Origin: an uncultured Acetobacteraceae bacterium
GTDB taxonomy: Bacteria; Pseudomonadota; Alphaproteobacteria; Acetobacterales; Acetobacteraceae
Length of the DNA stretch: 64,000 nucleotides
Direction of reading: 5' to 3'
Assembly (NCBI GenBank): GCA_964242925.1
Contig: CAXTBW010000003.1
Span: 5,126-69,125 of the forward strand
The notes beneath the pieces are model-generated. The model did no database searches and was not told where the DNA came from. It saw nothing but the letters and a program-made list of their open reading frames with translations. Below, piece after piece: positions 49,731-64,000 of the stretch. Position 1 is the first letter of the stretch, and each line of letters begins with the position of its first letter. The position numbers and the translations under genes were made by a program.

Positions 49731-51230
49731 ATGTTGCAGATCCCTGTTTTGGAGCGTTCACCCGGGCGGGTTTTAAACCGCGGCGACTTGCTCGCCCTGC
49801 TCGCTTGCATAACGCTTCTGCTAAGCATCGGCGCCGCGGCCGCCTGGCAGTCGGAGGCGAACGCCGCGGCGCTGCGGCTCGCGCGACAGACGCGGCTGCT
49901 GCGCGACCAGGTGACGGGCCTGATGCTCGCTGCGCAGGAGGCGGAGTCGTCGCAGCGGGGCTATCTGCTGACGCTCGACCCGACCTATCTGGAACCGTTC
50001 ACCGATGCGGAACGGAAAACGCCGCCCTTGTTGGCGGACCTGGCGTCCAGCTGGCCCGGAGATCCGCGCAGCATGGTCTTGCGCGACGTGCTGGCCGCCA
50101 AGTTCGCAGAGCTCGGCGAAACGATCCGGCTGGCGCGGTCCGGCGATCAGGCCGGTGCGATGCGGATCGTGCGATCGAACGCCGGCAACGAGGCGATGCA
50201 GGTCATCCGCCAAACCGTCTCGGCGTTGGAGACGGAGTTGGACGCGAGGCTGGCCGGGCAGGTGGCGGCGATGACGCGGGGCGGCCGGTTGCTGGTCGCC
50301 ATCGACTTGGCCGGGCTGGCGATGATCTTCGCATTGGCCGGGCTGATCGCGCTGGGCTTGCGGCGCACGGTGGCGACCCTGCGGACGTCGCAGGCGCAGA
50401 CCGCCACAGCGTACGGCGCGCTTGAACTGGTGAACGAAGGGCTGGACGAAATGGTCCGGCAGCGCACGGCCGACTTGTCGAATGCGAATGAGGAGATCCA
50501 GCGGTTCGCCTACATCGTGTCGCATGACCTGCGTGCGCCGCTGGTCAACATCATGGGCTTCACCAGCGAGCTGGACCAGGCATCTGCGATGTTGCTGGAA
50601 CATGCGTCGGCCGAGGCAACGCCGGGTCACGTGCGGGAGATCGTGGCGAACGAGATTCCGGAAGCGCTGCGGTTCATCCGCTCCTCGACGACGAAGATGG
50701 ACGGGCTGATCAAGGCGATCCTGCGGCTGTCGCGGGAGGGACGGCGCGTGCTGGCGCCGGAGCCGCTCGACATGGCGGCGACGTTGCGCACCTTGATGGA
50801 CAGCCTGGAGCACCAGGCCTCGCAGAAGGCGGCGACGGTCAGCATCGGATCGGTCCCCGCGATCACGGCGGACCGGCTGGCGGTGGAGCAGGTGTTCGGC
50901 AACGTGTTGGAGAACGCGTTGAAATACCTCAAGCCGGGCCGCCCGGGCGTGATCAGCGTGACAGGACGGGTGGACGGCGCCATGGCCTGCTTCGAGGTGA
51001 CCGACAACGGCCGCGGCATTGCGGAACGCGACTACGAGCGGGTGTTCGACCTGTTTCGCCGCGCCGGCGACCAGTCGGTGCCCGGCGAAGGCATTGGGCT
51101 GGCGCATGTCCGCGCCCTGGTGCGGCGGCTGGGCGGCACAATTGGTTGCAGTTCGACGTTGGACATTGGCTCGACGTTCATCATCTGTCTGCCGCAGTCG
51201 CCGCAATGGGCGAGGGAGACGGTCGCGTGA
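49731..51230 (+). CDS. CHASE3-domain sensor histidine kinase
   Basis: Two TM helices, AESSQRGYLLT (CHASE3), FAYIVSHDLRAPL, GEGIGL. Confidence 0.92.
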   Translation: MLQIPVLERSPGRVLNRGDLLALLACITLLLSIGAAAAWQSEANAAALRLARQTRLLRDQVTGLMLAAQEAESSQRGYLLTLDPTYLEPFTDAERKTPPLLADLASSWPGDPRSMVLRDVLAAKFAELGETIRLARSGDQAGAMRIVRSNAGNEAMQVIRQTVSALETELDARLAGQVAAMTRGGRLLVAIDLAGLAMIFALAGLIALGLRRTVATLRTSQAQTATAYGALELVNEGLDEMVRQRTADLSNANEEIQRFAYIVSHDLRAPLVNIMGFTSELDQASAMLLEHASAEATPGHVREIVANEIPEALRFIRSSTTKMDGLIKAILRLSREGRRVLAPEPLDMAATLRTLMDSLEHQASQKAATVSIGSVPAITADRLAVEQVFGNVLENALKYLKPGRPGVISVTGRVDGAMACFEVTDNGRGIAERDYERVFDLFRRAGDQSVPGEGIGLAHVRALVRRLGGTIGCSSTLDIGSTFIICLPQSPQWARETVA

Positions 51231-51667
51231 ACGCCAACCCGGTGACGATCCTGCTGATCGAGGACGATCCCGGCCATGCCCGGTTGATCGAGAAGAACGT
51301 GCGCCGCGCGGGGGTGAACAACGCCATCACGCCCTTTACCGACGGCACGGCGGCGATGGAGCACCTGTTCGGGACCTCGCCGGGCGGTGGCCGCCGGGTG
51401 CAGCTGCCGGTGCTGGTGCTGCTGGACCTGAACCTGCCGGACATGAGCGGGACCGACATCCTGGCGCGGATCAAGTCCGACGAGCTGCTGCGCCGGGTCC
51501 CCGTGATCGTGCTGACGACGACGGACGACAAGCTGGAGATCCAGCGCTGCTACGACCTCGGCTGCAACGTCTACATCACCAAACCGGTCGAGTACGAGAG
51601 CTTCGCCGTGGCGATCCGGCAGCTCGGCCTGTTCCTCGCGGTGATGCAGGTCCCCGAGTCGGATTGA
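51227..51667 (+). CDS. Single-domain response regulator (Rcp1-like)
   Basis: LIEDD, LLDLNLP, VLTTTDD, CNVYITKPV. Confidence 0.92.
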   Translation: MNANPVTILLIEDDPGHARLIEKNVRRAGVNNAITPFTDGTAAMEHLFGTSPGGGRRVQLPVLVLLDLNLPDMSGTDILARIKSDELLRRVPVIVLTTTDDKLEIQRCYDLGCNVYITKPVEYESFAVAIRQLGLFLAVMQVPESD

Positions 51668-51669
51668 CG

Positions 51670-52731
51670 GTGCCAGACGGCCCCGCCGCTCCGGTCCGCG
51701 TGCTGTATGTGGACGACGACACCGGCACTTGCCGTCTGGTGCGGCGGCATCTGGAGCGCGAGGGATTCAGCGTCGAGGTCGCCGGCGATGGCGAGTTGGG
51801 GTTGGAGCGGGCGCGGGCGCAGTCGTTCGACGTGATTGCGCTGGACCACTACATGCCCGGCCGCGACGGGCTGGACGTGCTGGCCGACCTCATCGCGCTG
51901 CCCAACGCCCCGCCGGTGATCTTCGTCACGGCGGCGGAGGAGCCGCGGATCGCCGTGACCGCGCTGAAGGCGGGCGCGTTCGACTACGTGGTGAAGGACG
52001 TGCAGGGCACGTTCCTGGAGTTCATGGGCACCTCCATCCGCCAGTCGCAGGTGCAGGCGCGGCTGCGGCGCGAGCGGGCGGCGGCGCTGTTGGAGCTGCA
52101 GGACAGCCGCGACCGGCTGGAGACGTTGGCGGCGCAGCAGGCGGTGCTGCTGAAGGAGGTCAACCACCGGGTCGCCAACAGCTTGCAGCTGATCTCGTCG
52201 CTGATCGGGCTGCAGGGCCGCAAGGTGGCCGACCCGGACGCGCGGGAGGCGCTGAAGCGCGCTGCGGAGCGGGTGGAGGCGGTGATGCTGGTGCACCGGC
52301 GGCTCTACACCAGCAACGACGTCGAGTTCGTGGCGATGGACCAGTACCTCGAGGGCCTGATCGAGGAGCTTCGGCGGGCGGTTGCGGCGGAGGAACGGCC
52401 GGGCCGGATCACCGTGACATCGGACCCGATCCGGGTGGAGACGGATAAAGCGGTGTCGCTAGGGCTGATCGTGAACGAGCTGGTCACCAACGCGCTGAAA
52501 TACGCCTACCCGGGCCGGGATGGCGACATCCGCGTCAGCTTCGAGCGCAAGGCGGGCGCGATCCAGCTGACCGTCGAGGATGATGGCGTGGGCTACGTGG
52601 ATGGCGCGGCGCCGAAGGGCAGCGGGTTGGGCGGCGTGATCGTCAACGCGATGGCGCGCATGGTGAAGGCGACGGTGGCGCTCGACCCGGCGCATAGCGG
52701 CACGCGGGTGGTGCTCAGCCTGGCTGAGTGA
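51670..52731 (+). CDS. REC-HisKA_2/HWE-type histidine kinase
   Basis: N-terminal REC, LKEVNHRVANSLQ (HRxxN), NELVTNALKYA, GSGLG. Confidence 0.9.
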   Translation: MPDGPAAPVRVLYVDDDTGTCRLVRRHLEREGFSVEVAGDGELGLERARAQSFDVIALDHYMPGRDGLDVLADLIALPNAPPVIFVTAAEEPRIAVTALKAGAFDYVVKDVQGTFLEFMGTSIRQSQVQARLRRERAAALLELQDSRDRLETLAAQQAVLLKEVNHRVANSLQLISSLIGLQGRKVADPDAREALKRAAERVEAVMLVHRRLYTSNDVEFVAMDQYLEGLIEELRRAVAAEERPGRITVTSDPIRVETDKAVSLGLIVNELVTNALKYAYPGRDGDIRVSFERKAGAIQLTVEDDGVGYVDGAAPKGSGLGGVIVNAMARMVKATVALDPAHSGTRVVLSLAE

Positions 52732-53923
52732 TCTGGTTTCGTCGGAGCCAGTTCAGGGCTGCCTCGCCGGCCGCGAAGCCGGTGCTGAAGGCGGCCTGCA
52801 GCAGGTAGCCGCCCGTCGGCGCCTCCCAATCCAGCATCTCCCCGGCGAGGAACACTCCCGGATCCAGGGGAGCGTCGAACCGGACGCCGCCGGCGGTCGA
52901 GATCGCGCGCGCCAGTCCGGTCGTGCCGGACAGCCGCAGCGGCAGCGCCTTGATGGCGCCGGCAAGGTCTGCCCGGACGCCCGCGCACTCCCGCAGCAGG
53001 GCGACCGAGACGGGCGGCAGGCCGGCCGCCTTGCGCAGGAAGGTGGACAGCGACTGGGCGCGGCGCGGGGCCGAGAGGCGACGGCGCAGCTCGTCCGACG
53101 CGAGGTCGGGGCGCAGGTCGAGGGTTGCGACCGCGTGACCGTCGGCGGCGATCGCGTCGCGCAGGGCGGCGCCCAGGGCATAGAACGGGCCGCCCTCGAC
53201 GCCGGCCGCGGTGAGCGTGGCATCGCCCGGGACGCGGTTGGCGCCCACCGTGAGCGCGATGCGCTTGAGCGGCGCGCCCGCGTGACGCGCCATGTGCGGC
53301 GACCAGGCGGCGGTGAACCCGCAATTGGCCGGCCGGAACGACGCCAGCGCGGCGCTGGGGAACGCGCTGGCCCAGGCGCCGTCGGAGCCGAGGCGGGGCC
53401 ACGAGGCGCCGCCCATCGCCAGGACCAACGGCCCGGGCGGCAGCGTCGCGGCCGGGTCGAACACCGCGGCGCCGTCCGCGTCCCAGCCGAGCCAGCGGTG
53501 GCGCAGGCGGAAGCGCACGCCGAGCCCGTCCAGCCGGCGCAACCAGGCGCGCAGCAGCGGCGACGCCTTCATCGCGCGCGGGAACACGCGTCCGCTGCTG
53601 CCGGTGAACACGGGTTGGCCGAGCGCCTCGCACCAGGCGCGCAAGGCGTCCGGCGGGAAGGCGCGGATGGCGGGCGCGAGCGCGTCGGTGGCGGCGCCGT
53701 AGCGGCCGAGCAGCGCGTCGAGCGGCTCCGCATGGGTGAGGTTCAGCCCACCGGCGCCGGCCATCAGCAGCTTGCGGCCCGGCGACGGCATGCGGTCGAA
53801 CACGGTCACGGTCACGCCGCCCAGCGCCATGCGCTCAGCCGCCATCAGGCCGGCGGGCCCGGCGCCGATGACGGTCGCGGAGACGCTAGCCACATCAGGG
53901 TCGTTGGGGGATGCTGCGGTCAT
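52715..53923 (-). CDS. HI0933/BaiN-like flavoprotein (TIGR03862-type)
   Basis: [43 protein letters not shown]; start may be 53893. Confidence 0.85.
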
Positions 53924-55034
53924 GATCGAACAGGTTGAAGCGGTTGTCCTGGGGGCCGGCGTGGTCGGCCTGGCAGTGGCGCGGGCGCTGGCGATGTCTG
54001 GCCGCGAGGTGCTGCTGCTGGAGGCGGCGGGCGGCATCGGCACCGTCACGTCGTCGCGCAACAGCGAGGTGGTGCATGCCGGTATCTACTATCCGACGGG
54101 CAGCCTCAAGGCGCGGCTATGCGTGGCGGGGCGGACCGCGCTGTACGGCTACTGCGCGGACCACGGCGTGCCCATCAGCAAGATCGGCAAGCTGATCGTC
54201 GCCAGCGACCCGGCGGAATCAGCTCGGCTCGAGGCCATCCAGGTGCAGGCGGCGGCCAATGGCGTGGCGCTGACCCAACTGAGCGGGGCGGCTGCGCGGG
54301 AGATGGAACCGGCGTTGCGGGTCGATTCGGCCCTGCACTCGCCGGAAACGGGGATCATCGACAGCCACGCGCTGATGCTGGCCTACCAGGGCGAGATGGA
54401 AGAGGCGGGCGGCATGCTGGCGGTGCACTCGCCGCTGGCGGGGGGCGCGGTGGAGGATGACGGCATCCGTCTGCAGGTGGGCGGCGAGCACCCGATGCAG
54501 CTGCACTGCCGGGTGTTGGTGAACGCGGTGGGGCTGCACGCGCCGGACGTGGCGCGCAGCATCTCCGGCATTCCGTCGCAGAGCATCCCGCGGGCATATC
54601 TGTGCAAGGGCAGCTACTATGGGCTGGCCGGACGCGCGCCGTTCAGCCGGTTGATCTACCCGGTGCCGGAGCCGGGCGGGCTAGGCGTGCACCTGACGTT
54701 GGACCTGGGCGGGCAGGCGCGGTTCGGACCGGACGTGGAGTGGGTGGACCACGAGGAGTACGACGTGGATCTGTCGCGCGCCGCCGGGTTCTACGCCGCG
54801 ATCCGGCGCTATTGGCCCGGGTTGGCGGATGGCGCGCTGGTGCCGGGCTACGCCGGAATCCGCCCCAAGATCAGCGGCCCAGGGCAGCCGGCCGCGGACT
54901 TCGCGTTGGTGGGCCCGACCACGCATGGCGTGCCCGGCCTGGTGAACCTGTTCGGGATCGAGAGCCCGGGGCTCACCGCCTCATTGGCGATCGGCGACGC
55001 GGTGCTGCGGCGCCTCGAGGGGGATGAGTCCTGA
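53922..55034 (+). CDS. FAD-dependent oxidoreductase, L-2-hydroxyglutarate oxidase family
   Basis: [35 protein letters not shown]. Confidence 0.88.
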
Positions 55035-55075
55035 TGCCGGTCCGCTGCCACATTCACTGCTGAAGGAGCCGCGCC

Positions 55076-55852
55076 ATGCCGCCCGACGCCTGGGACCCGG
55101 CGCTGTATCGCCGCTTCGAAGACCAGCGCACCCGCCCGGCTCGCGACCTGCTCGCGGCCGCGCCATTGGCCGCGGCGCGGCGCGTGGTGGACCTTGGCTG
55201 CGGCCCAGGCAACAGCACCGAACTGCTTGCGCAACGATTTCCGGGCGCCGCCGTGCTGGGGGTGGACACCTCGCAGTCGATGCTGGCGAGCGCGCGTGAG
55301 CGGCTGCCGGGCTGCGATTTCGTGGCCGGCGACATCGCGGACTGGACGCCGGAGCAGCCTCCGGATCTGATCTACGCCAACGCCGCGCTGCATTGGGTCC
55401 CGGACCACGCGGCGCTGTTCCCGCGGCTGCTCGGGATGCTGGCGCCGGGCGGGGTGCTCGCGGTGCAAATGCCGGACAACCGGGAGGAGCCGTCGCACCG
55501 GCTGATGCGGGACGTTGCGGCGGCGGGCCCGTGGGCGGCGAAGCTGGCGGATGCGGGCGAGCAGGTGCGCGTGCTGCCAGCCCGCGCGTACTACGATCTG
55601 CTGGCGGGCGCGGGGGCGGCGGTGGAAGTCTGGCGCACCGTGTACCACCATCCGATGGCGTCGGCCGGCGCGATCGTGGACTGGGTCAAGGGCACGGGGT
55701 TGCAGCCGTTCCTGACACGGCTCAGGGCGGACGAGCAGGCGGCGTTCTGCGCGCAATATGAGGCGGCGGTGGCGCAGGCCTACGCGCCGTGCGCCGACGG
55801 GATGCGGCTGTTGCTGTTTCCGCGGCTTTTCGTGGTCGCGACCGTTATGTAA
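55076..55852 (+). CDS. tam: Trans-aconitate 2-methyltransferase
   Basis: [45 protein letters not shown]. Confidence 0.92.
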
Positions 55853-55912: not shown

Positions 55913-56626
55913 GTGCTGACGAAGCGGTTCGCCCGAGCATCCCATCGCGCCTGCGCCTTGCTGTTGGCCGCGTGTCTGACCCTGACTGGATGCGCTGCCG
56001 GCGCCGTCGCCGATGACCCGTCGCTGAGCCCGGAGGAGAACCAGCTGCGCAAGGCGAACGCGCGCTTCACGCAGACGGTGGGCGAGGGCGCGGCGGTCGG
56101 CGCGATCGCCGGCGGGCTTGCGGGGGCGTTGCTGGGTGGGCGCAACCGGGTGGCGATGGCGGCGCTCGGCGCAACGGCCGGCGGTGCTTTGGGCGCCGGC
56201 GCGGGCTTCCTGGTGGCGCGGAACAATGCTGCGCGCACGCACTCGGAAGCGGACTACAACACGGCGATCGACCAGGCGCAGCAGGACGCGGCGGCGTATC
56301 GCACGTCGGCCGACGCGGCGCGTGGGATCGCCAGCAACTGCGTTGCGCAGATCAACGCGCTGGACCGGCAATACCGCGCGCGGCAAATCACGGCAGCGCA
56401 GTTCCGCGCCAGCGTGGCGCACTATCAGAAGGACAATGAATTGCTGCAGGCGCAGGTGACCGGCGCGCAGGACACGGCGAACTCGCTGCGCACCATGGGC
56501 GCCACCGGCAACACCGCGGGGTCGGCGAACAGCACCGCGGCGGATATCGATGGGTCGCGCCAGTCGTTGGCGAGCAGCGCCGCCGCGATCAGCCAGGCGC
56601 TGTCGCGGGTGCCGCAGGGGGCGTGA
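55913..56626 (+). CDS. Glycine-zipper lipoprotein, TagQ-like
   Basis: AGGAGG RBS, lipobox LTGC, GAAVGAIAGGLAGALLGG..GATAGGALGAGAG zipper, C-terminal coiled coil. Confidence 0.7.
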   Translation: MLTKRFARASHRACALLLAACLTLTGCAAGAVADDPSLSPEENQLRKANARFTQTVGEGAAVGAIAGGLAGALLGGRNRVAMAALGATAGGALGAGAGFLVARNNAARTHSEADYNTAIDQAQQDAAAYRTSADAARGIASNCVAQINALDRQYRARQITAAQFRASVAHYQKDNELLQAQVTGAQDTANSLRTMGATGNTAGSANSTAADIDGSRQSLASSAAAISQALSRVPQGA

Positions 56627-57114
56627 TGGTGCATCGTAGGATTGCCGCGTTGGCCGCGGCTGCTGCATTGGCCGGCTGCTCCGCGGGCGCCTGCGATCCA
56701 TCGCAAGCCGGCTTCCTGAGCGGGATCGGTTGCGAGGCGTCGGGCGCCTACACGCAGCGCAACCAGGCGCAGCAGGCGAGCCTGGCGCAGAGCCGCGCCG
56801 CCGCGTTGCAGGAACAGGCCGGCGCGGCCCAGGCGCAGGATGAAGCAACGGGCGCCCAAATGGCGCTGGACGAGCGGCGGCGGCGGCTGGGCGCGATCGA
56901 CGCGCAGAACGCGGCGCTGCGGCGTCGGCTGGCGACGTTGCAGGGCAACAACCGGGTCAACCAGGCGCAGCTTGCGAGCGCGCAGGCGCAGCTGAGCGAG
57001 ATCAATCGCCGCCGGGCCAGCTTACCCGCAACGCCGGATCCGGCCGCCGTACGCGACCTGGAACGGCAGCAGCAGAACCTGCAGGCAACGGTGCGGGATT
57101 TGGGCAACCTGTAG
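56623..57114 (+). CDS. Coiled-coil lipoprotein
   Basis: Lipobox LAGC, CDPSQAGFLSGIGC motif, long Gln/Ala/Arg heptads; overlaps upstream stop. Confidence 0.7.
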   Translation: MMVHRRIAALAAAAALAGCSAGACDPSQAGFLSGIGCEASGAYTQRNQAQQASLAQSRAAALQEQAGAAQAQDEATGAQMALDERRRRLGAIDAQNAALRRRLATLQGNNRVNQAQLASAQAQLSEINRRRASLPATPDPAAVRDLERQQQNLQATVRDLGNL

Positions 57115-57151
57115 CCGTCGTTTGCCCCGGCATGACGATGCAGGCCGGGGC

Positions 57152-58693
57152 CTACCGCGGCGGGGGCGCCGAGTTGGAGGGGACGGCCAGGATGGCGGCG
57201 ACCACCTCGTCCGTCGCCAGGTGGCGGCCGGTCACTATGGCGGCGACGTGCTTCAACACGATTGGCATGAACGCCGCCTCCCGCGTGCGGCCGCGGTTGC
57301 CGAGTTGGGTCAGCAGCAGCGCGGCCTGCCCATCCACCTGGCTGTGGACCGAGCTGTCCGCCATCTGCCGGATCAGCCGGCTGTAGCCGTCTGCGGTGCC
57401 CGCGATGTAGTAGCGCAGCCGCGCGGCCGCGACATGGTTTTGCCTGTTGAGTTCGGCCTGGCTCGCGACGCCCTCGGCCACGCGCTCCAGCACCCCCGCG
57501 ATGTAGTCGGTGGTCCAGATGCTCTGCGCCAGCGTGACGGCGGCCTCGAGTTCGGCGCCGATGGCTGCCTTGGCCTGGTCATCCCGGTCGCGCTGGCTTG
57601 ACGACAATGCGTCGGTGATGCGGTCGAGCCCGTCGCGAACTGCGGGGTCGAGCGCCTGGCCTTTGAGCAGCGCGATCAGGCGGCGCGGGTCGTCCACCGC
57701 CTGAGTGGTGGCGCCCGACACCGCGTCGAAGGCGGCGCGGTCGGCCTCCACGTCGGCCAGGCCGTCGGCGGTGGTGGCGGACAGCACCACGCGGAAGCCG
57801 ACTGTCGCCAGCCGGGTCGGGGTGTTGTCGGCGGAATTGTACGGCGGCATCTCGTCGCGCATCGCCGTGTGCAGGCTGGCGGGGGGCGAAGTGTAGTTGC
57901 CGCCGCGCAGCACGACGCCGCCGGCCTGGCCCTGCTCACGGCCGACCCGGTTCAGCCGGTAGGGGCCGAGCATCATCTGCGACACGTTGCCCAGCACGTC
58001 GTAGAGCCCGAGCGGGTTGGGCAGCAGCAGCCCGACCTGCTGCGGCTTGCCCGCTGTCAGCCTTGTGCCGGCCATGGCGTAGCGTTCGATCCCCTCCGGC
58101 ATGGGCCAGAGCGGGCCCAGGAAGTCCTCGTCGCTGACCTTGGCGCCGCCGCGCGCGGCGTACTCCCACTCGTCCTCGGTGGGCAGGCGGATGAAACCGA
58201 ACGAGCCGCCGCGATGCGGCAGCTTGTCGCGCGCGTTGGTCAGCAGCCACGTGGAGTAGCGGGCGCCGAAGTCGATCGCCTCGGGCCAGCCGACGGAACT
58301 CTGTGCGACGCGGCCGGCCGGGCTGGCGGTGGGGCAGGGCGGTTGCCGCATGGCGGCGAACTGGTCGCGAGTGACGTCGTATTTGCCCATCCAGAACAGT
58401 TTGTGGCCGGGTTCGCCGAAGGGCGCGGCCAGGTAGGCGCCGCGGGTGAACTCGCTATAGCCGAGGTCGGTGCCAGCCTGGCCGAGCAGCATGCCGTGGT
58501 CGTCCAGCGCGCCCGTGTCGGTCGGCACCTCGACCGGGCGGAACACCATGGCGCCGCCGCACGGCATCGGCAGCACTAGGTCGTCGTCGGCGGGGTGCGG
58601 GTTGTACAGCCGCGGGTCCCAGTTGGCCGTGGCAGGGGGGGCGGCGTGCGCGGCGTTGGCCAGCAACAGCAGAATGGCGGCAAAACGAATCAT
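57152..58693 (-). CDS. Exported FGE-sulfatase (SUMF1) domain protein, TagR-like
   Basis: Signal peptide, LVLPMPCGGAMVF, RLPTEDEWEYAARGG, PNPLGLYDVLGNV, GFRVV; helical C-terminal extension. Confidence 0.82.
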   Translation of the reverse strand: MIRFAAILLLLANAAHAAPPATANWDPRLYNPHPADDDLVLPMPCGGAMVFRPVEVPTDTGALDDHGMLLGQAGTDLGYSEFTRGAYLAAPFGEPGHKLFWMGKYDVTRDQFAAMRQPPCPTASPAGRVAQSSVGWPEAIDFGARYSTWLLTNARDKLPHRGGSFGFIRLPTEDEWEYAARGGAKVSDEDFLGPLWPMPEGIERYAMAGTRLTAGKPQQVGLLLPNPLGLYDVLGNVSQMMLGPYRLNRVGREQGQAGGVVLRGGNYTSPPASLHTAMRDEMPPYNSADNTPTRLATVGFRVVLSATTADGLADVEADRAAFDAVSGATTQAVDDPRRLIALLKGQALDPAVRDGLDRITDALSSSQRDRDDQAKAAIGAELEAAVTLAQSIWTTDYIAGVLERVAEGVASQAELNRQNHVAAARLRYYIAGTADGYSRLIRQMADSSVHSQVDGQAALLLTQLGNRGRTREAAFMPIVLKHVAAIVTGRHLATDEVVAAILAVPSNSAPPPR

Positions 58694-59901
58694 GCGCTGC
58701 TCACTCCCTCCCACGGGGCCACCCGCGCGGCCCGGGCGCCTGCCGCGGCGGCAACGGCGATGGACCCTAGCACCGTGGCCAGCGCGGCAAGAAACGCCGC
58801 CGGCCAGGTGATGCGGCACAACGGGCGGTCCAGTTGCAAGGTCCCGGCGAACAGGACGTTGATCACGGCGGCGGCCGCCAGCGCGACGGACAGGGCGAGC
58901 GCCGTCCCGATCGCCGCCAGCACGGCGGCCTGCGCCATCGGGAACAATCGCAGCGCGCCGGACCGCATTCCCAGGAAGCGCAGCAACGCCAACGACACAC
59001 GCTTGCGCTCCACGTTCGCCCATAGCCCGGCGCCGAGCGCCACCAGGAACCCGGCCGCCCCCAGCCCGGCGATCAGCGCGAACAACAACGTGAGGTTCGC
59101 GTCGATGCGCAGCAGGTCCGCCACATCGCCGGCGCGGGAGGCGACCTCGATCCCCATCGCGCGCAAGGCGACGTCCAGCGCCGGAACCTCGTCCAGCCGC
59201 GCGGCGTATAGGCGGAACCCGGCGTAGTCCGGCCGCGCCGGCATGGGCAGTTCGGCGAGGCTGCCGGCCGGGGCGCCTGCGCGGTTGTCCTGGAAATCCT
59301 CGACGAACACCGCGAGCGGCAGAGTGACGAAGGCGCCATCGCGGCGGAACGCGGCCGGCGCGGCCACCGCTTGCACGGTGAGCGCCAGCGGCACGCTCTC
59401 ACGCCGCCCGTCGCGGATGCGGGCCAGGCGACCGGCCAAGGTGTCGCCCGCCGCCACGTGCAGCCGCGACGCGACCGAAGCGCTGAGCACGATTCGGTCC
59501 GACGCCGTCGGCCCGGCGCCGGTCGGCAAAAGCGGGTCGCCGGGTGCGGTGGGGATCAGGTCGGCGCGCACGCCCTCGCCCGGCGCGTCCGTCCGCTCCA
59601 GCAGCAGGCTGGCCGCGAGGGTGCGGGTGCGCGGGGCGAGGAACGCCACGTCCGGCCGGGCGGCCAGTTGGGCAAGCAGCGCCGCGTCGATGGTGCGATT
59701 GGCGGCGGTGACGATCTCGCGCGCATGCGGGTCCTCCAGCAGCAACTCGCGCAACCCGGCGATGACGCCGGCGCGCAGGCCCGCGAGCACGATCAGCGGC
59801 GCCAGCACGGCGGCGAGCGAGAGGATGGTGCAGGCGGCGAGCACCCGCTCCGACAGCAGGTCCGCCATGGCGAGGCGTGGCGCGAGCCGCAGCGCGTTCA
59901 A
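58690..59901 (-). CDS. FtsX/LolE-like ABC permease, TagS-like
   Basis: LAAVLAPLIVLAGLRAG TM1, large periplasmic loop, NVERKRVSLALLRFLG, three C-terminal TMs. Confidence 0.82.
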   Translation of the reverse strand: MNALRLAPRLAMADLLSERVLAACTILSLAAVLAPLIVLAGLRAGVIAGLRELLLEDPHAREIVTAANRTIDAALLAQLAARPDVAFLAPRTRTLAASLLLERTDAPGEGVRADLIPTAPGDPLLPTGAGPTASDRIVLSASVASRLHVAAGDTLAGRLARIRDGRRESVPLALTVQAVAAPAAFRRDGAFVTLPLAVFVEDFQDNRAGAPAGSLAELPMPARPDYAGFRLYAARLDEVPALDVALRAMGIEVASRAGDVADLLRIDANLTLLFALIAGLGAAGFLVALGAGLWANVERKRVSLALLRFLGMRSGALRLFPMAQAAVLAAIGTALALSVALAAAAVINVLFAGTLQLDRPLCRITWPAAFLAALATVLGSIAVAAAAGARAARVAPWEGVSSA

Positions 59902-60686
59902 GCGGGCGGCCAGGCGAATCGGGTGATCGGCGCGTCGGCATCCGGCTCGCAGGGCGCGAGGCGGTAGCCGGCGGCGGCCGCGCGGGCGCCGTCATGGGTG
60001 ACGAGCACGGTTGCGGCGCCGTCGCGCTCGGCGACCTCGGTGAGCAGGTGGAGGATGGCGTCGGCCTGCGCCGGGTGGACGGAGGCGGTGGGCTCGTCGG
60101 CGAGCACGATCGGCGGGTGGTGGGCGATGGCGCGGGCGATGGCGACCCGCTGGCGCTGGCCGACGGAGATCTGCGCCGGCCGGCGGTTCAGGATGGCGCC
60201 GAGACCGAGCTGGTAGGCCAGGTCCGCCACCCGCTGCGGGTCTGGCCGGCCGAGGATGGCCAACGGCAGGGCGATATTCTGCTGCACCGTCAGGAACGGC
60301 AGCAGGGCGGCGGTTTGCGGCACGAAGCCGATGGAGGACGCGCGCAGGGCGGCCAGCGCGTCCGCTGCGTTGTCGCGCCACAACGCCAGCGCGTCGCCGC
60401 CGCCGAGCAGCAGGCCGCCCGCTCCGTCATCGGGCCGCAGCGCGCCGGCGAGCAGGGCCAGCATCGTGCTCTTGCCGCAGCCGGACGGCCCGGTGATGGC
60501 GACGCGCTCGCCGGCGCGGACGAAGAGGCGGTCGATGCGCAGGGTGAAGTCGGAGCCGCCCGCGGAGTAGGAGCGTCCTATGTCCCAGGCGGCCAAGGCG
60601 CAACTCTCCGCTTCTTCCTCTCCCGCTCGCGGGAGAGGGTCGGGGTGAGGGGAATGCGGGATCCTCACACGCGCCGCCACCCTCAC
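59898..60686 (-). CDS. LolD-like ABC ATPase, TagT-like
   Basis: GPSGCGKST, ISVGQRQRVAIARA, LADEPT, VTHD; true start may be TTG at 60596. Confidence 0.88.
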   Translation of the reverse strand: MRVAARVRIPHSPHPDPLPRAGEEEAESCALAAWDIGRSYSAGGSDFTLRIDRLFVRAGERVAITGPSGCGKSTMLALLAGALRPDDGAGGLLLGGGDALALWRDNAADALAALRASSIGFVPQTAALLPFLTVQQNIALPLAILGRPDPQRVADLAYQLGLGAILNRRPAQISVGQRQRVAIARAIAHHPPIVLADEPTASVHPAQADAILHLLTEVAERDGAATVLVTHDGARAAAAGYRLAPCEPDADAPITRFAWPPA

Positions 60687-60714
60687 CCAACCCTCTCCCG
60701 CAGGCGGGAGAGGG
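60617..60714. repeat. REP-like composite palindromic element
   Basis: CCTCTCCCGCTCGCGGGAGAGGGTCGGGGTGAGGG and its inverted copy CCCTCACCCAACCCTCTCCCGCAGGCGGGAGAGGG. Confidence 0.85.
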
Positions 60715-60741
60715 CCTTTTGACGCGTGGTATGGCCGAGGG

Positions 60742-62691
60742 TCACGGCAGGGCGTCGAGGGGGACGGGGTACATCGCCTCGCCGGGCGTGCGGCTGCCGG
60801 ACAGGTCGACCCACAAATCGGGTTGCGCTTGGTACTCCTGATACAGCCGCAGCTTGGCCTCGACGTTATTCAGCACGGTGCGCTGCGCGATCGCGCCCAT
60901 GCTGAGCCAATCCGGCTCCGCAATGTTCATGATGTCCGACTGGTAGGGCAACCCGTCCAGATACTCGCCCAGCAGCCCGCCGATGTTCTGCGCGCCGGCG
61001 ATCCGGCTCGGGTCGCGGGCGGTCGCGGCAAAGGCGGAGCGCAACTGGGTGAAGAAGGTGCGGGAGTCCAGCCGCTGCGCGATGCCGGCGTCCAGGATGG
61101 TCTTGAGGCTCTTGGCCAGGTCCGAAAGCTGATTGCGGGTCAGCAGCACGCGAACGTCCAGGCTGGACAGCTCGGGGTTTGCCAGGTCGCGGTCCGTGGT
61201 CCAGCTGCGGATCACGTCGGGCGCGCGGGTGCCTTCCAGGCGGCCGAGATAGGTCAGCCGCATGGCATTCGATACGACGTCGATCTGTTGCTGCTGCGGC
61301 CCGTTCAACGCGCCGCCGCCCTCGACCGCGTGCCCGGTCGCGGCCGCGGCCTGGCGCAGCAGCGCGGTGGACAGCGCCTCGACGGTCTGCGCGAAGCTGT
61401 CCGCGGCGCCGTTCGGCACGGGGAAGTACAGCGAGCCGGCGGCATCGAAGCGGGACAGCTCGGTATATTGCGCGCGCGCCGGCTCGTGGTCGTGCCGCGC
61501 CCGGCCCTCGGGGGTGAGCAGGTGGATGACCAGGACGGCGATGCCGCGCGCCTTCGCCAACTCACGGATCTCGGCGATGTTCAGGTGGGTGAGGCTATGC
61601 GGGTGCGTGGAGGTGCGCGCGCCCGCATCGGTGACGAGCACGACGAAGCGGCCGGCCATGCCGTTCCAGTCGATCTCGTCGATCGCGGTCTTGATGCCGC
61701 CGATCGGGTCCTCGTCGAACCCGGTGGACGAGGCGGTGGCCTGCGCAACGTCGGCGAGCGCGGGCAGGATTGCGTCGGCGGGCTTGGTGAAGTCGGGCCG
61801 GGCGTAGACCCGAGTCGGGTAACCCAGGCCGGGGTTGTCGGCGAGGCTGTCGCGATAGGCGACCAGGCCGAAGCGGAAATCGTTCTTCGCGGACGACGCG
61901 CCGATGCGGCTGACGATGCTGCGGATCGCGTCGCGGGTGCGGTCTATGTACGGCTGCATGCTCATCGTGGTGTCGAGCACGAAGACCACGCCGGCGCGGT
62001 ACGGCTCGGCGGGCGGGGGCGCCGGGCGGTCCGGCTGGGACGGCACGCTGATCACCTGCAACAGGCGCAGCGGGGGGCCGAACTCGCGCTCGACGGTCTG
62101 CGCCTCGATGATCGGCATCAGGTAGAAATTGTGCGCGAAGTCGACATGGGTGGCCGGCTCGACCGCGAGCACCGGCGCCGCGTCGGTGTGCGCGGCTGCT
62201 GCAGCTGCGGCGGCGGTGCGCAGCGCGGCCGCCTTGTCGCCGGCCTGGGCATCGAGCATCAGCAGGCGTTCGTTCTGCTCGCTGTCCAGGAACAGCACGG
62301 GCTGGCGGCCGGACGGGTTGGTGAAGGCGGCGATCATGGTGTGCTGCCACTCGATCGCGCGGTCGGCGGCGATCCAGCCCACGGTGCGGCCGTCCGCGGT
62401 GGGGCCGACCTCGAGCGCGTCGCCCTGCTTGGCGTAGACGTAGAACACGGTGAAGCCCGGCACGGAGCTGCCGCCGCGGCCGCCGGGCTGCGGCGAGAGG
62501 GTGGCGCCCGGCCGGGTCACGACACGTTGGAACAGCGACTGCTTGCCGGGCAGCAGCAGCGGCGTGCGCGCGGCTGACGGCGTTTGCGCTGCGACAGGAG
62601 CGGTTAGGAGCAGCATCACCGTTAGGGCGCGCATCATTACGAGGTAGGCCGCACCTACCTTCCCGTCATGCCAGGGCTTGACGATGATCAT
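60742..62691 (-). CDS. Exported vWA-domain protein resembling the periplasmic half of PpkA
   Basis: Signal peptide, PLLLPGKQSLFQRVVTRPG, MIDAS-like VFVLDTTMSM, FGLVAYRD, LVTDAGA, ends YPVPLDALP; alternative start 62637. Confidence 0.8.
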   Translation of the reverse strand: MIIVKPWHDGKVGAAYLVMMRALTVMLLLTAPVAAQTPSAARTPLLLPGKQSLFQRVVTRPGATLSPQPGGRGGSSVPGFTVFYVYAKQGDALEVGPTADGRTVGWIAADRAIEWQHTMIAAFTNPSGRQPVLFLDSEQNERLLMLDAQAGDKAAALRTAAAAAAAAHTDAAPVLAVEPATHVDFAHNFYLMPIIEAQTVEREFGPPLRLLQVISVPSQPDRPAPPPAEPYRAGVVFVLDTTMSMQPYIDRTRDAIRSIVSRIGASSAKNDFRFGLVAYRDSLADNPGLGYPTRVYARPDFTKPADAILPALADVAQATASSTGFDEDPIGGIKTAIDEIDWNGMAGRFVVLVTDAGARTSTHPHSLTHLNIAEIRELAKARGIAVLVIHLLTPEGRARHDHEPARAQYTELSRFDAAGSLYFPVPNGAADSFAQTVEALSTALLRQAAAATGHAVEGGGALNGPQQQQIDVVSNAMRLTYLGRLEGTRAPDVIRSWTTDRDLANPELSSLDVRVLLTRNQLSDLAKSLKTILDAGIAQRLDSRTFFTQLRSAFAATARDPSRIAGAQNIGGLLGEYLDGLPYQSDIMNIAEPDWLSMGAIAQRTVLNNVEAKLRLYQEYQAQPDLWVDLSGSRTPGEAMYPVPLDALP

Positions 62692-63833
62692 GGCCAGAAG
62701 TCCCGCAGGATGAGTTCGGATTGCATGTCGCCGGTGGCTGCCTTGGCTCGCAGGAAGGCCTGCAGCGCGTCGCGCTTGGCGGCCACGTCGGGGACGCCGG
62801 CGCGGCTGGCGTCGCGGTAGTAGCGGGCGGCCTGGCGCGGGTCGGGTTTGGCCAGCAACGGGCTGGGCCGGAAGGTGACCGGGTCGTAGAGCCCGCCGAG
62901 CGTCATCATCGCGCTGCCGTCGCCGCGGTCGGCGGCTTCCTCCAGCAGCAGCATGCCGTCGTCGGGCTTGCCCTGGGACAGCCGGCGGCGCCCCTCGGCG
63001 GCGATCGCGCCCACGTTGGGCGCGCGGCTCAGCACGTCCGGCACGCTCATGTCGGCGAGCGGGCGCGGCGGCGTACCGGGGGGCGTAACGGGTTGTGCAA
63101 CTGGGGGCGTGACCGGCGGCGTGATCGGCGGAACCGTCCGTGGCGGCAGTGGCTGCGGCGTGGGCCGCGGCGTCGGCGCGGGCGGCGTGACCACGACCTC
63201 GGTGTGGCGGAAGTATGCGTAGGTCGCCTCCGCCGTCGCGACCAGCAGCAGCAACGCGAGGATCAGCAAGCCGCGTTTCAGCAGCCCATCGCTCTTACGG
63301 CGCGCGCCGGGGGGCGGCAGCGGCGGAGGCGCCACGGGGGGACGGGGTAGCGGTGGCGGCGCAGGCGGTGGCTTCGGCGCAGGCGGTGGCGGCGGCCTCG
63401 GCGCAGGCGGTGGAGGCGGTGGCGACGCAGGCGGTGGCGACGCAGGCGGCGGCGGTGCTGGCGGCGGCGGCGCAGGGGGAGGCGGCGCGGCGACCATGCG
63501 GGCGCGGGAGGCGGCGCGGACCGGGCGGATGTCGGGCCAGCTCGCCGCCTCGTCAATGCGGGCGGCGGGCACGGCCACAAGGTAGGTGCCGGCCTCCAGA
63601 TGCGCGCATACCCCCCAGCCCACGGTCAGCAGCAGGCCGCCGCCATCGGTGGCGACGGCGTCCGGCTGCAGCAGAGCGTCCTCGCCCTGCCAGCCGTTCG
63701 GTCCGAGGTTGCCCTGGTCCCAGCCTTCCCGCCGAATGCGCAGCCCCGGTGACCCGGCGGCGGCCGCGGCCCCGGCGACGCGCAGCTGGGCGGTGCCCGC
63801 GCGACCTTCGGGGTCGGGCACGACGGTGATCAT
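62688..63833 (-). CDS. Bitopic Pro-rich membrane protein with C-terminal Sel1-like repeats
   Basis: About 100-aa N-terminal domain, poly-Pro linker, TM (GLLILALLLLVA), LEEAADRGDGSAMMTLGGLYDP...AARYYRDA. Confidence 0.72.
   Translation of the reverse strand: MITVVPDPEGRAGTAQLRVAGAAAAAGSPGLRIRREGWDQGNLGPNGWQGEDALLQPDAVATDGGGLLLTVGWGVCAHLEAGTYLVAVPAARIDEAASWPDIRPVRAASRARMVAAPPPPAPPPPAPPPPASPPPASPPPPPPAPRPPPPPAPKPPPAPPPLPRPPVAPPPLPPPGARRKSDGLLKRGLLILALLLLVATAEATYAYFRHTEVVVTPPAPTPRPTPQPLPPRTVPPITPPVTPPVAQPVTPPGTPPRPLADMSVPDVLSRAPNVGAIAAEGRRRLSQGKPDDGMLLLEEAADRGDGSAMMTLGGLYDPVTFRPSPLLAKPDPRQAARYYRDASRAGVPDVAAKRDALQAFLRAKAATGDMQSELILRDFWP
63312..63490. repeat. Low-complexity poly-proline coding repeats (about 15-nt units)
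   Basis: Tandem GGCGACGCAGGCGGT-like units encoding [10 protein letters not shown]. Confidence 0.7.
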
Positions 63834-64000
63834 GCGCGGCGCGCCTCCAGGTGAACCAGGATGCCGCCGAGCGCCTCGTTGGCGGCGATGTCGAGGCCGG
63901 ACGCCCCCGGGTCCTGCACGTTGTCCTCGAAGGTGCGCTGCAGCGCGGTCATCCAGTCGATGTGGAACACCCGGTCATAGGGCGCCGCGGTGGCGCCGAG
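63830..64000 (-). CDS. C-terminal fragment of probable SrfC-family protein (truncated by window edge)
   Basis: Open frame LGATAAPYDRVFHIDWMTALQRTFEDNVQDPGASGLDIAANEALGGILVHLEARRA*; DW..AL / N..LG.IL pattern; ATGA overlap with next gene. Confidence 0.6.
   Translation of the reverse strand, partial: LGATAAPYDRVFHIDWMTALQRTFEDNVQDPGASGLDIAANEALGGILVHLEARRA

Follow-up and report, generated by a model that had tools for sequence, protein, structure and literature searches.

What does the sensor of a type VI secretion system (T6SS) do where it is joined to srf genes and no T6SS lies beside it? This question is raised by a locus at the right end of the window analysed here, a stretch of 64,000 nucleotides from an uncultured Acetobacteraceae bacterium (G000:C3:5126-69125, in a 4.3 Mb, 84%-complete assembly). 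By sequence comparison, the locus encodes TagQ, TagR, TagS and TagT homologs and a homolog of the periplasmic part of the kinase PpkA, next to the 3' end of srfC. It is no member of the T6SS phosphorylation pathway: it contains the sensor half of that pathway, but both its membrane relay and its output are different. We propose, giving this reading slightly less than an even chance, that it senses envelope damage without a kinase and calls in a membrane-remodelling machine of dynamin and Hsp70 type, for repair rather than attack.

The first part of the answer is the exported vWA protein (60742..62691, minus strand), a 649-aa frame with a signal peptide. Residues ~25-649 (~620 in all) are 34-36% identical to the kinase-fused PpkA proteins of eight T6SS loci (E 1e-108 to 1e-116). 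The protein consists of N-terminal beta domains, a vWA domain with a conserved metal ion-dependent adhesion site (MIDAS)-type motif and a C-terminal helical domain. In its structural model the central vWA fold was recognized with Z 18.5 and a TM-score of 0.8 to integrin I domains, in fold searches that barely probed the N- and C-terminal domains. It has neither a kinase nor a membrane anchor and corresponds to everything in PpkA beyond its membrane linker. An earlier, sequence-only reading of this DNA had called it an exported, PpkA-like vWA protein: homology to the periplasmic part of PpkA stands, while the loss of kinase and anchor, and the Sel1-like protein that stands in for them (see below), had been overlooked. 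PDB sequence and profile searches with the vWA protein, SrfC and SrfB returned nothing significant.

The neighbouring genes complete the sensor. They encode an ABC ATPase (59898..60686, minus strand; PF00005 E 7e-28) with Walker A/B, Q-loop, signature and His motifs, an FtsX/MacB-family permease with four hydrophobic transmembrane (TM) segments (58690..59901, minus strand) and an exported protein of the formylglycine-generating enzyme (FGE) fold with a C-terminal helical extension (57152..58693, minus strand; PF03781 E 6e-22). When compared with ten T6SS-linked tag/ppkA reference sets, identities were 33-36% for the vWA protein, 38-48% for the ATPase, 36-40% for the permease and 31-35% for the FGE-fold protein. 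The permease scored 179-208 bits against the ten T6SS-linked TagS proteins and ≤14 bits against other FtsX-family permeases of six genomes; for the ATPase these values were 133-197 bits (TagT) and ≤129 bits (other ATPases). A tree of ATPase plus permease placed the pair in a TagST clade (support 100/100) apart from six Lol pairs, and the ATPase reached 126 bits against the LolD model, whose cut-off is 308. On these comparisons the ABC pair is classified as TagS/TagT homologs. LolCDE and MacAB have the same folds (ABC ATPase and 4-TM FtsX-type permease); an identity with either was rejected on the far lower scores, the separate clade and the missed LolD cut-off.

In active FGEs, two catalytic cysteines sit in the C-terminal portion of the domain. 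The FGE-fold protein here aligns with TagR over its full length and has only two cysteines, Cys45 and Cys120, neither of them in the aligned active-site stretch. It shares the FGE domain with the active enzymes; identity as one of them is ruled out because the catalytic cysteines are lacking, and by alignment the protein is classified as a non-catalytic TagR homolog. A PDB search with it returned FGE-fold proteins alone, such as PorK/GldK. The homology to Tag and PpkA proteins that had been claimed from the sequence is thus borne out by profile, score, tree and identity, and neither Lol/MacAB proteins nor active FGEs match better.

Two lipoprotein genes lie on the opposite strand. The first (55916..56626, plus strand; GTG start after an AGGAGG site, longest frame from 55868) encodes a lipobox, a glycine zipper and a coiled coil. 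It matched the NCBIfam TagQ model NF041250 at E 4e-6 (26 bits, cut-off 300), and a profile-profile comparison with five T6SS-linked TagQ proteins gave 97.8% (E 7e-13, 113 columns), partly through the low-complexity zipper. By profile it is homologous to TagQ, and we regard it as a putative TagQ-type lipoprotein that would lie in the outer membrane. The second (56626..57114, plus strand) encodes a lipobox, a Cys pair and a long coiled coil; it had no Pfam match and no profile match to TagQ.

Free and kinase-fused forms of the vWA protein were then found in different company. A vWA profile matched 15 of 401 phylum-wide genomes. Eight of the 15 matches were frames of ~1000 residues whose N-terminal part is a kinase, within the gene order tssJKLM-pppA-ppkA-tagT-tagS-tagR-tagQ; we took these eight genomes to be pseudomonads because of this gene order and because of TagR loop residues listed for P. 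aeruginosa. In the family of the kinase-fused genomes 35 of 151 had a vWA match, and 20 further loci were read. All six fused copies among them lay in fha-tssJKLM-pppA clusters, while all 14 free copies lay behind srfB-srfC, 13 of these being followed by T, S, R and lipoprotein genes. Both surveys summed, the fused form was in T6SS loci in 14/14 cases and the free form behind srfC in 18/20, counts which, as related genomes are not independent, are patterns and not statistics. One of the two exceptions was at a contig end with srfB elsewhere in the genome, and the other (L104) had no srf genes. SrfB itself was found in 15 of the 401 genomes, comprising six of the seven with a free vWA protein, none of the eight with a fused one and nine without any vWA match (even at E 0.001). 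By profile, the second lipoprotein was present in 13/14 unfused pseudomonad-type loci and in no T6SS-linked locus; it accompanies the TagQ-like gene in Srf-type loci and not in T6SS loci.

The exceptional locus L104 (G112:C35:23500-43499) is a third sensor context. It has vWA-T-S-R genes and both lipoprotein genes, no upstream Sel1-like anchor gene, and four large exported proteins (Sel1/MORN, MG2-like) that are divergently encoded; TssC was not found in its genome. A search of 39 genomes of the same order for free vWA proteins in other contexts gave no new full-length match.

If the sensor is shared with the T6SS, it could still serve one at a distance. The assembly does have a complete T6SS on contig C38 (vgrG, hcp, clpV, tssA, B, C, F, J, K, L, M, tagJ, Fha, PP2C phosphatase and Ser/Thr kinase; stretches L007 and L008), parts of a second cluster on C124 (L009) and another vgrG on C20 (L010). 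The C38 kinase, the sole PF00069 match of the assembly, has no vWA part and only a weak C-terminal DUF4384 match. The vgrG of C38 is followed by DUF2169 and pentapeptide-repeat genes, and genes for a peptidoglycan glucosaminidase and an OmpA-family protein are close to the kinase. Contig C3, which carries the window, runs 9.4 kb past the window end and then stops, and no contig-end overlap joins it with C38 or C124. The earlier statement that no T6SS is in view therefore holds for the window and the remaining 9.4 kb, where no complete T6SS with Fha/PppA follows, and fails for the genome as a whole, which has the full set on C38.

Sixteen T6SS queries found no T6SS gene near the module in 80 related loci (the best 80 among 461 matches, almost all of Acetobacteraceae type), and none was found in eight upstream extensions or in the 14 unfused loci. 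TssC was present in 28 of the 50 genomes of the longer-flank subset of the 80 loci; among 23 near-complete genomes that have a free vWA protein, 12 had it. The TssC-negative carriers include single-contig chromosomes. Where the module and TssC share a contig, 0.08-2.3 Mb separate them. A single draw of 150 family genomes yielded TssC in 10/21 vWA-positive and 61/129 vWA-negative genomes, so that there is no association. The module is independent of the T6SS in its family, and the suggestion of the sequence-only reading that the same sensor set is linked to a Srf output, without an adjacent T6SS, is upheld by the flanks and by genomes that have the module and lack the sheath gene. One genome, G532, has a Srf-type locus with T, S, R and Q homologs (L163) and elsewhere a T6SS with fused PpkA (L164) without tagTSR within 6 kb downstream.

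A free vWA protein raises the question of what holds it at the membrane. Between srfC and the vWA gene lies a gene for a Pro-rich, single-pass Sel1-like membrane protein (62688..63833, minus strand), with an N-terminal cytoplasmic domain, Pro-rich linkers, one TM segment at 183-201 and a periplasmic Sel1-like domain (E 9e-5 to Sel1-repeat structures). The gene is in this place in 77/80 related loci and 14/14 free loci (E 1e-13 or better), and fused loci have no counterpart beyond weak matches to PpkA's own Pro-rich/TM stretch. It thus occupies, in Srf-type loci, the position of the kinase-TM half of PpkA. A model of the periplasmic Sel1 domain in complex with the vWA protein scored 0.79 (runs 0.79, 0.79 and 0.61), compared with 0.00 for the best of three controls. 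The mark applied to this score is passed by 116/157 solved and 2/215 mismatched pairs and is a rough guide where alignments are self-made. The runs share at least 97% of contacts, with a partner pLDDT of at least 87. The predicted contact lies on the C-terminal helices of the vWA protein (521-522 and 580-600, numbered from the Met at 62634), outside the vWA domain, and on the Sel1 side it involves positions 45-52 and 85-88 (numbered from codon 247). The model is unlikely to reproduce a solved complex, since a sequence search with the vWA protein gave no relative of known structure. The contact pair 521/52 covaries between lineages (R-E, D-R, L-A), in three lineages and in the same alignments that were fed to the model. 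Going by this predicted docking, the Sel1-like protein likely replaces the tether of PpkA. No kinase-Sel1 or Sel1-vWA fusion was found among 120 listed of 445 matches.

The output side begins with srfC, of which the window holds the 3' end (63830..64000, minus strand; whole gene G000:C3:68955-71612), and continues beyond the window with srfB (C3:71749-74685), which precedes srfC in tandem. The products matched PF10139 (SrfC, E 3e-220) and PF07520 (SrfB, E 2e-271), and neither has an N-terminal hydrophobic signal. SrfC has conserved GxSQAGKS, ESTG-like, DFPG and T[KQ]FD motifs (in the rows shown of 32 sequences), the G1-G4 motifs of dynamin type. Its structural model (pLDDT 86.6, pTM 0.82) gave SynDLP as the best Foldseek match (E 3.7e-8), and all listed matches were of the dynamin family (BDLP, Drp1, the Campylobacter pair, Mx and OPA1). 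The top six matches of a VIA structure search were also of this family (Z 11.0-12.7; Fzo1 at Z 12.1, rmsd (root mean square deviation) 6.0, 334 aligned), a Z of such size between helical proteins not being decisive by itself. Further structural relatives are IniA and mitofusins. SrfC is therefore predicted to be a dynamin-like GTPase with a GTPase domain and a helical bundle/stalk, which may bind membranes and polymerize.

SrfB has four motifs, in order and conserved, that align with those of the genome's own DnaK, namely the phosphate-1, phosphate-2, adenosine and connect motifs. A profile of these motif blocks placed DnaK first after SrfB itself among 13,722 frames of the genome, weakly (E 0.05). 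Judged from its motifs, SrfB is likely an Hsp70/actin-type ATPase.

Upstream of srfB, at C3:74699-78499, three srfA-like genes encode single-pass membrane proteins; among their domains are a Cys-rich one of SrfA-C type, an unnamed beta domain and a trypsin-like protease. The first two, each with one TM segment, matched NF040486 at 38 and 77 bits (E 9e-10 and 2e-21; cut-off 150) and are classified from these scores as divergent paralogs below the family cut-off. The second (C3:75847-77231; L001:15348-16732) is interrupted by an N-run of the assembly and is a continuous frame of ~380-440 codons in relatives. The third encodes a membrane-anchored trypsin-like protease (PF13365 E 5e-22) and is cut by the contig end; in 8/8 relatives a protease gene with a SrfA-N head opens the operon. 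The SrfA proteins have a common cytoplasmic head and exchangeable periplasmic domains (protease, Cys-rich domain and, in L093, vWA). A preprint describes this head as a kinase-like fold without catalytic activity (10.64898/2026.09.18.752743; here and below, statements on published work refer to the parts of each source that were available). SrfA-N was tried as a descendant of the PpkA kinase, and hhalign gave 3% (E 0.014). In the gammaproteobacterial-type loci (L093:5699-6943 and the ends of L150, L153-L155, L157-L159, L162 and L163) the last gene of the operon, behind the lipoprotein genes, encodes one more SrfA-N protein; in L093 this closing protein has a vWA domain as its periplasmic part.

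From the genes past the window and the eight relatives in which the protease gene comes first, the operon unit is srfA(protease)-srfA-srfA-srfB-srfC-Sel1-like-vWA-ATPase-permease-FGE plus the two lipoprotein genes. All genes that the sequence-only reading had listed are present where it had placed them, and the continuation into srfC, srfB and srfA that it had left to be checked beyond 64000 is present. As it had also described, the minus-strand chain is joined by overlapping start and stop codons at all junctions but one, which holds a palindrome, and converges on the lipoprotein genes. The overlaps are ATGA, ATGA, TTGA and ATGA, and the gap at the point of convergence is 37 bp. The G+C content of the locus (71-75%) is near that of the remaining window. 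The same gene order recurs in the 80 related loci (Sel1-like 77, ATPase 75, permease 69, srfC 69, srfB 66, FGE 65) and the arrangement is therefore not chance; missing genes are mostly explained by contig ends, and in L054 srfC was not seen within 2 kb. The lipoprotein genes occur in both orientations.

The palindrome (60617..60714, ~100 bp, between the vWA and ATPase genes) folds as a single long hairpin. It gave 224 BLAST matches on 74 of 181 contigs and is thus a genome-wide repeat and a passenger; it was rejected as a component of the system. The ATPase probably starts downstream of it, at the TTG at 60596. In one relative (L011:11893-12636) the same palindrome family is apparently in frame within the ATPase gene and adds ~30 residues. 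Four loci of one genus (L159, L161, L162 and L163) have an extra 0.7-1.3 kb between the vWA and ATPase genes, and three of them have ~1 kb between the srfB and srfC matches.

The genes before the operon vary among the eight relatives that were read further upstream, and none is a T6SS gene. In the window, the lipoprotein genes are preceded by genes for an HI0933-like flavoprotein, a flavin adenine dinucleotide (FAD) oxidoreductase and an S-adenosylmethionine (SAM) methyltransferase (52715-55852), with no sign of membership in the system. Before these, at 49731-52731, successive genes encode a sensor kinase, a response regulator of a single domain and a receiver-kinase protein, which by eye resemble a general-stress/light-type phosphorelay.

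How such a system might work can be outlined from P. aeruginosa, in which a TagQ-TagR complex (2:2) is obtained in about six-fold higher yield upon damage, the ATPase activity of TagT is required, and the periplasmic domain of PpkA has a pocket into which a loop of TagR has been modelled, so that the kinase is paired (Kolesnikov et al. 2026, PMC13713981). Reasoning from homology, the TagQ, R, S and T homologs and the kinase-free PpkA part would sense outer-membrane damage here too. Carried over from P. aeruginosa, damage would lead to a 2:2 TagQ-TagR complex that pairs two PpkA-type periplasmic domains, with the TagST ATPase needed. The Sel1 domain is predicted to hold the free vWA protein through its C-terminal helices, so that pairing would cluster the Sel1-like protein in the inner membrane and activate no kinase. 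The clustered cytoplasmic heads, together with the three SrfA receptors, might then bring SrfB and SrfC to the inner face of the membrane where the damage lies. There SrfC could polymerize on the membrane and be loaded or recycled by SrfB, the inner membrane being remodelled or sealed, and the SrfA-linked periplasmic protease could clear damaged or foreign protein.

Several observations weigh against this outline. No functional data on damage sensing were found for any such locus. The TagR loop that P. aeruginosa needs for docking on PpkA (261-273) is divergent here, being ~3-4 residues shorter and keeping only a hydrophobic-Ala-Gly core. A TagQ-like gene was found beside only 25/80 related loci and the second lipoprotein gene beside 26/80, where 50/80 reach 1.5 kb past the FGE gene and the profiles were partly built from the loci in which they were counted. 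L019 and L021 have no downstream genes despite flanks of 4.7 and 10 kb, and L156 lacks some parts of the module. The two halves can also occur apart: genome G112 has the sensor genes of L104 and no srf gene (SrfB was not found), and the Srf core needs no such sensor, because SrfB stands without a vWA protein in nine of its 15 genomes. As to the output, global TM-scores of the SrfC matches are low (0.12-0.22), a shared fold proves no function, and hydropathy shows no transmembrane paddle; hhalign connected SrfB to DnaK with a probability of only 17% and to MreB with 35%. Finally, Sel1 interface positions are no more conserved than the rest (0.62 vs 0.58, p 0.25).

Other explanations must be weighed against the repair reading. 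The locus may be a conflict system, in which penetration by a phage tail or an injection needle causes SrfC, SrfB and the SrfA-linked protease to depolarize, fragment or shut down the cell and so protect kin. Its patchy spread (SrfB in 0/24 same-genus genomes, the vWA protein in 21/150 family genomes), the variable periplasmic domains on a fixed SrfA head and a role of DynA in phage resistance would suit this; we nevertheless consider it rather unlikely, as gene order and sequence are strongly conserved, the upstream neighbours in eight relatives are by eye housekeeping or transposase genes with no defence island, and no nuclease, NADase or pore effector was recognized in the locus. Also unlikely is an export or assembly line, in which a Lol-like ABC pair and the vWA and FGE-fold proteins would process SrfABC as a vesicle-borne three-part toxin against eukaryotes. 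Here the ABC pair is TagST and not Lol, the FGE-fold protein has no catalytic cysteines, nucleotide-binding motifs are conserved in SrfB and SrfC, neither of which has an N-terminal hydrophobic signal, and SrfA is membrane-anchored. Lysates and purified SrfA/B/C proteins of Xenorhabdus stockiae do harm insect and HeLa cells, but these assays did not use secreted material (PMC6950479). A vesicle route has been proposed (10.64898/2026.09.18.752743), a dynamin could drive vesicle budding, and many carriers are host-associated (PMC3608642), whereas many environmental genomes of Acetobacteraceae type carry the operon intact.

The conserved MIDAS-type motif, a fold common to integrin I domains and pilus adhesins, and the presence of membrane tethers and fusogens among the nearest dynamins could instead point to contact sensing, with a metal-binding vWA domain that drives adhesion, bridging or fusion between cells and is unrelated to damage. 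This is quite unlikely, given that the sensor parts are all predicted to be periplasmic and that the studied homologs answer outer-membrane damage (PMC13713981). Control at a distance, with the Tag-like genes regulating the genome's own T6SS and the srf genes as bystanders, is in our judgement very unlikely. The genome's T6SS does have Fha, phosphatase and kinase, G532 has a T6SS that could draw on the tagTSR homologs of its Srf-type locus, and a P. syringae paper counts a "ppkA" cluster and srfB among (p)ppGpp-regulated T6SS genes (PMC7146990). Such control is opposed by the lack of association with TssC in the 150-genome draw, by the 22/50 and 11/23 module-bearing genomes in which TssC was not found, single-contig chromosomes included, and by the distances on shared contigs; furthermore, the C38 kinase has no vWA part and the vWA protein has no kinase with which to reach Fha.

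Returning to the repair reading, a wider version of it is possible, although we lean against it: TagQRST and the PpkA periplasmic domain would be a general and portable wound sensor of Gram-negative bacteria. Its older and commoner output would be dynamin/Hsp70 repair, started by clustering of the Sel1 anchor without phosphorylation; its use as a T6SS trigger in Pseudomonas would have arisen when a kinase fusion replaced that anchor, and SrfABC would be the cytoplasmic half of the repair machine. A FastTree phylogeny nested T6SS-linked TagST inside Srf-linked sequences. With IQ-TREE the deep order was unsettled and one Srf-linked clade was not rejected (approximately unbiased (AU) test p 0.33; 34 rows, a subset of loci), and because of this a derived T6SS form is not established by these trees. 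If the repair reading is true, many Proteobacteria own an envelope-spanning sensor that calls a dynamin to a wound, a bacterial counterpart of damage-triggered membrane repair. It would give one testable answer to two puzzles, the virulence label of SrfABC that has no mechanism and the role of TagST in the damage sensor. Harmless acetic acid bacteria that carry the full operon, for instance Acetobacter fabarum, Gluconobacter cadivus or Commensalibacter intestini, would allow TagQRST to be studied apart from the T6SS, and the predicted Sel1-vWA contact points to residues for testing.

The neighbourhood itself is real, widespread and already in print. Campbell et al. (2013, PMC3608642) described srfABC beside tagQ, R, S and T, ppkA and a single unknown gene (the "ligA" neighbourhood) in host-associated Deltaproteobacteria, mostly without a T6SS, and suggested that PpkA triggers SrfC export. 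In X. stockiae, T6SS post-translational genes lie beside srfABC, and SrfA, B and C co-precipitate (Sun et al. 2019, PMC6950479). A 2026 preprint on Haemophilus parainfluenzae srfABC reports Lol-like ABC, vWA and FGE genes and proposes vesicle export (10.64898/2026.09.18.752743; its supplements, outside this comparison, may hold operon analyses that bear on novelty), and a "ppkA locus" of P. syringae is mentioned twice (PMC7146990, PMC8959697). These are very likely the same system. In the available parts of these papers PpkA is a kinase that may trigger SrfC export, or the ABC pair is a Lol-like toxin exporter, and no dynamin is assigned to SrfC, no Hsp70 to SrfB and no anchor role to the unknown gene. 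The lineage studied here differs from the published srf loci in its three SrfA paralogs, one with a protease. Neither the kinase-free sensor wiring nor the dynamin/Hsp70 reading of Srf turned up in the literature searched, which covered few subscription journals.

Among dynamins, a cyanobacterial "chaperone clade" lies beside a DnaK-domain gene, with Srf not named in the text available (Jilly et al. 2018, PMC5827413), and SrfC is likewise paired with an Hsp70-type gene. B. subtilis DynA has been reported to cluster on membranes under pore-forming antibiotics and phage. With bacterial dynamins as a group (SynDLP, Nostoc BDLP, Campylobacter DLP1/DLP2, IniA and DynA), SrfC shares the G1-G4 motifs and the predicted GTPase-plus-helical-stalk fold; it differs from them in a large insert in the GTPase domain and in having no transmembrane paddle. 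We know of no other bacterial dynamin described with a trans-envelope Tag-type sensor.

The closest known system remains the TagQRST-PpkA-PppA-Fha1 pathway of the H1-T6SS (PMC13713981), a damage sensor described in Pseudomonas as acting only on T6SS assembly. The TagQ-like protein, TagR, TagS, TagT and the PpkA part occur in both, and their genes are arranged alike (vWA part, T, S, R, Q). In contrast to that pathway, the locus described here has no kinase, phosphatase, Fha or T6SS genes and exports the PpkA part as a separate protein; it adds the Sel1-like membrane protein and the second lipoprotein, and the output to which it is linked is srfABC.

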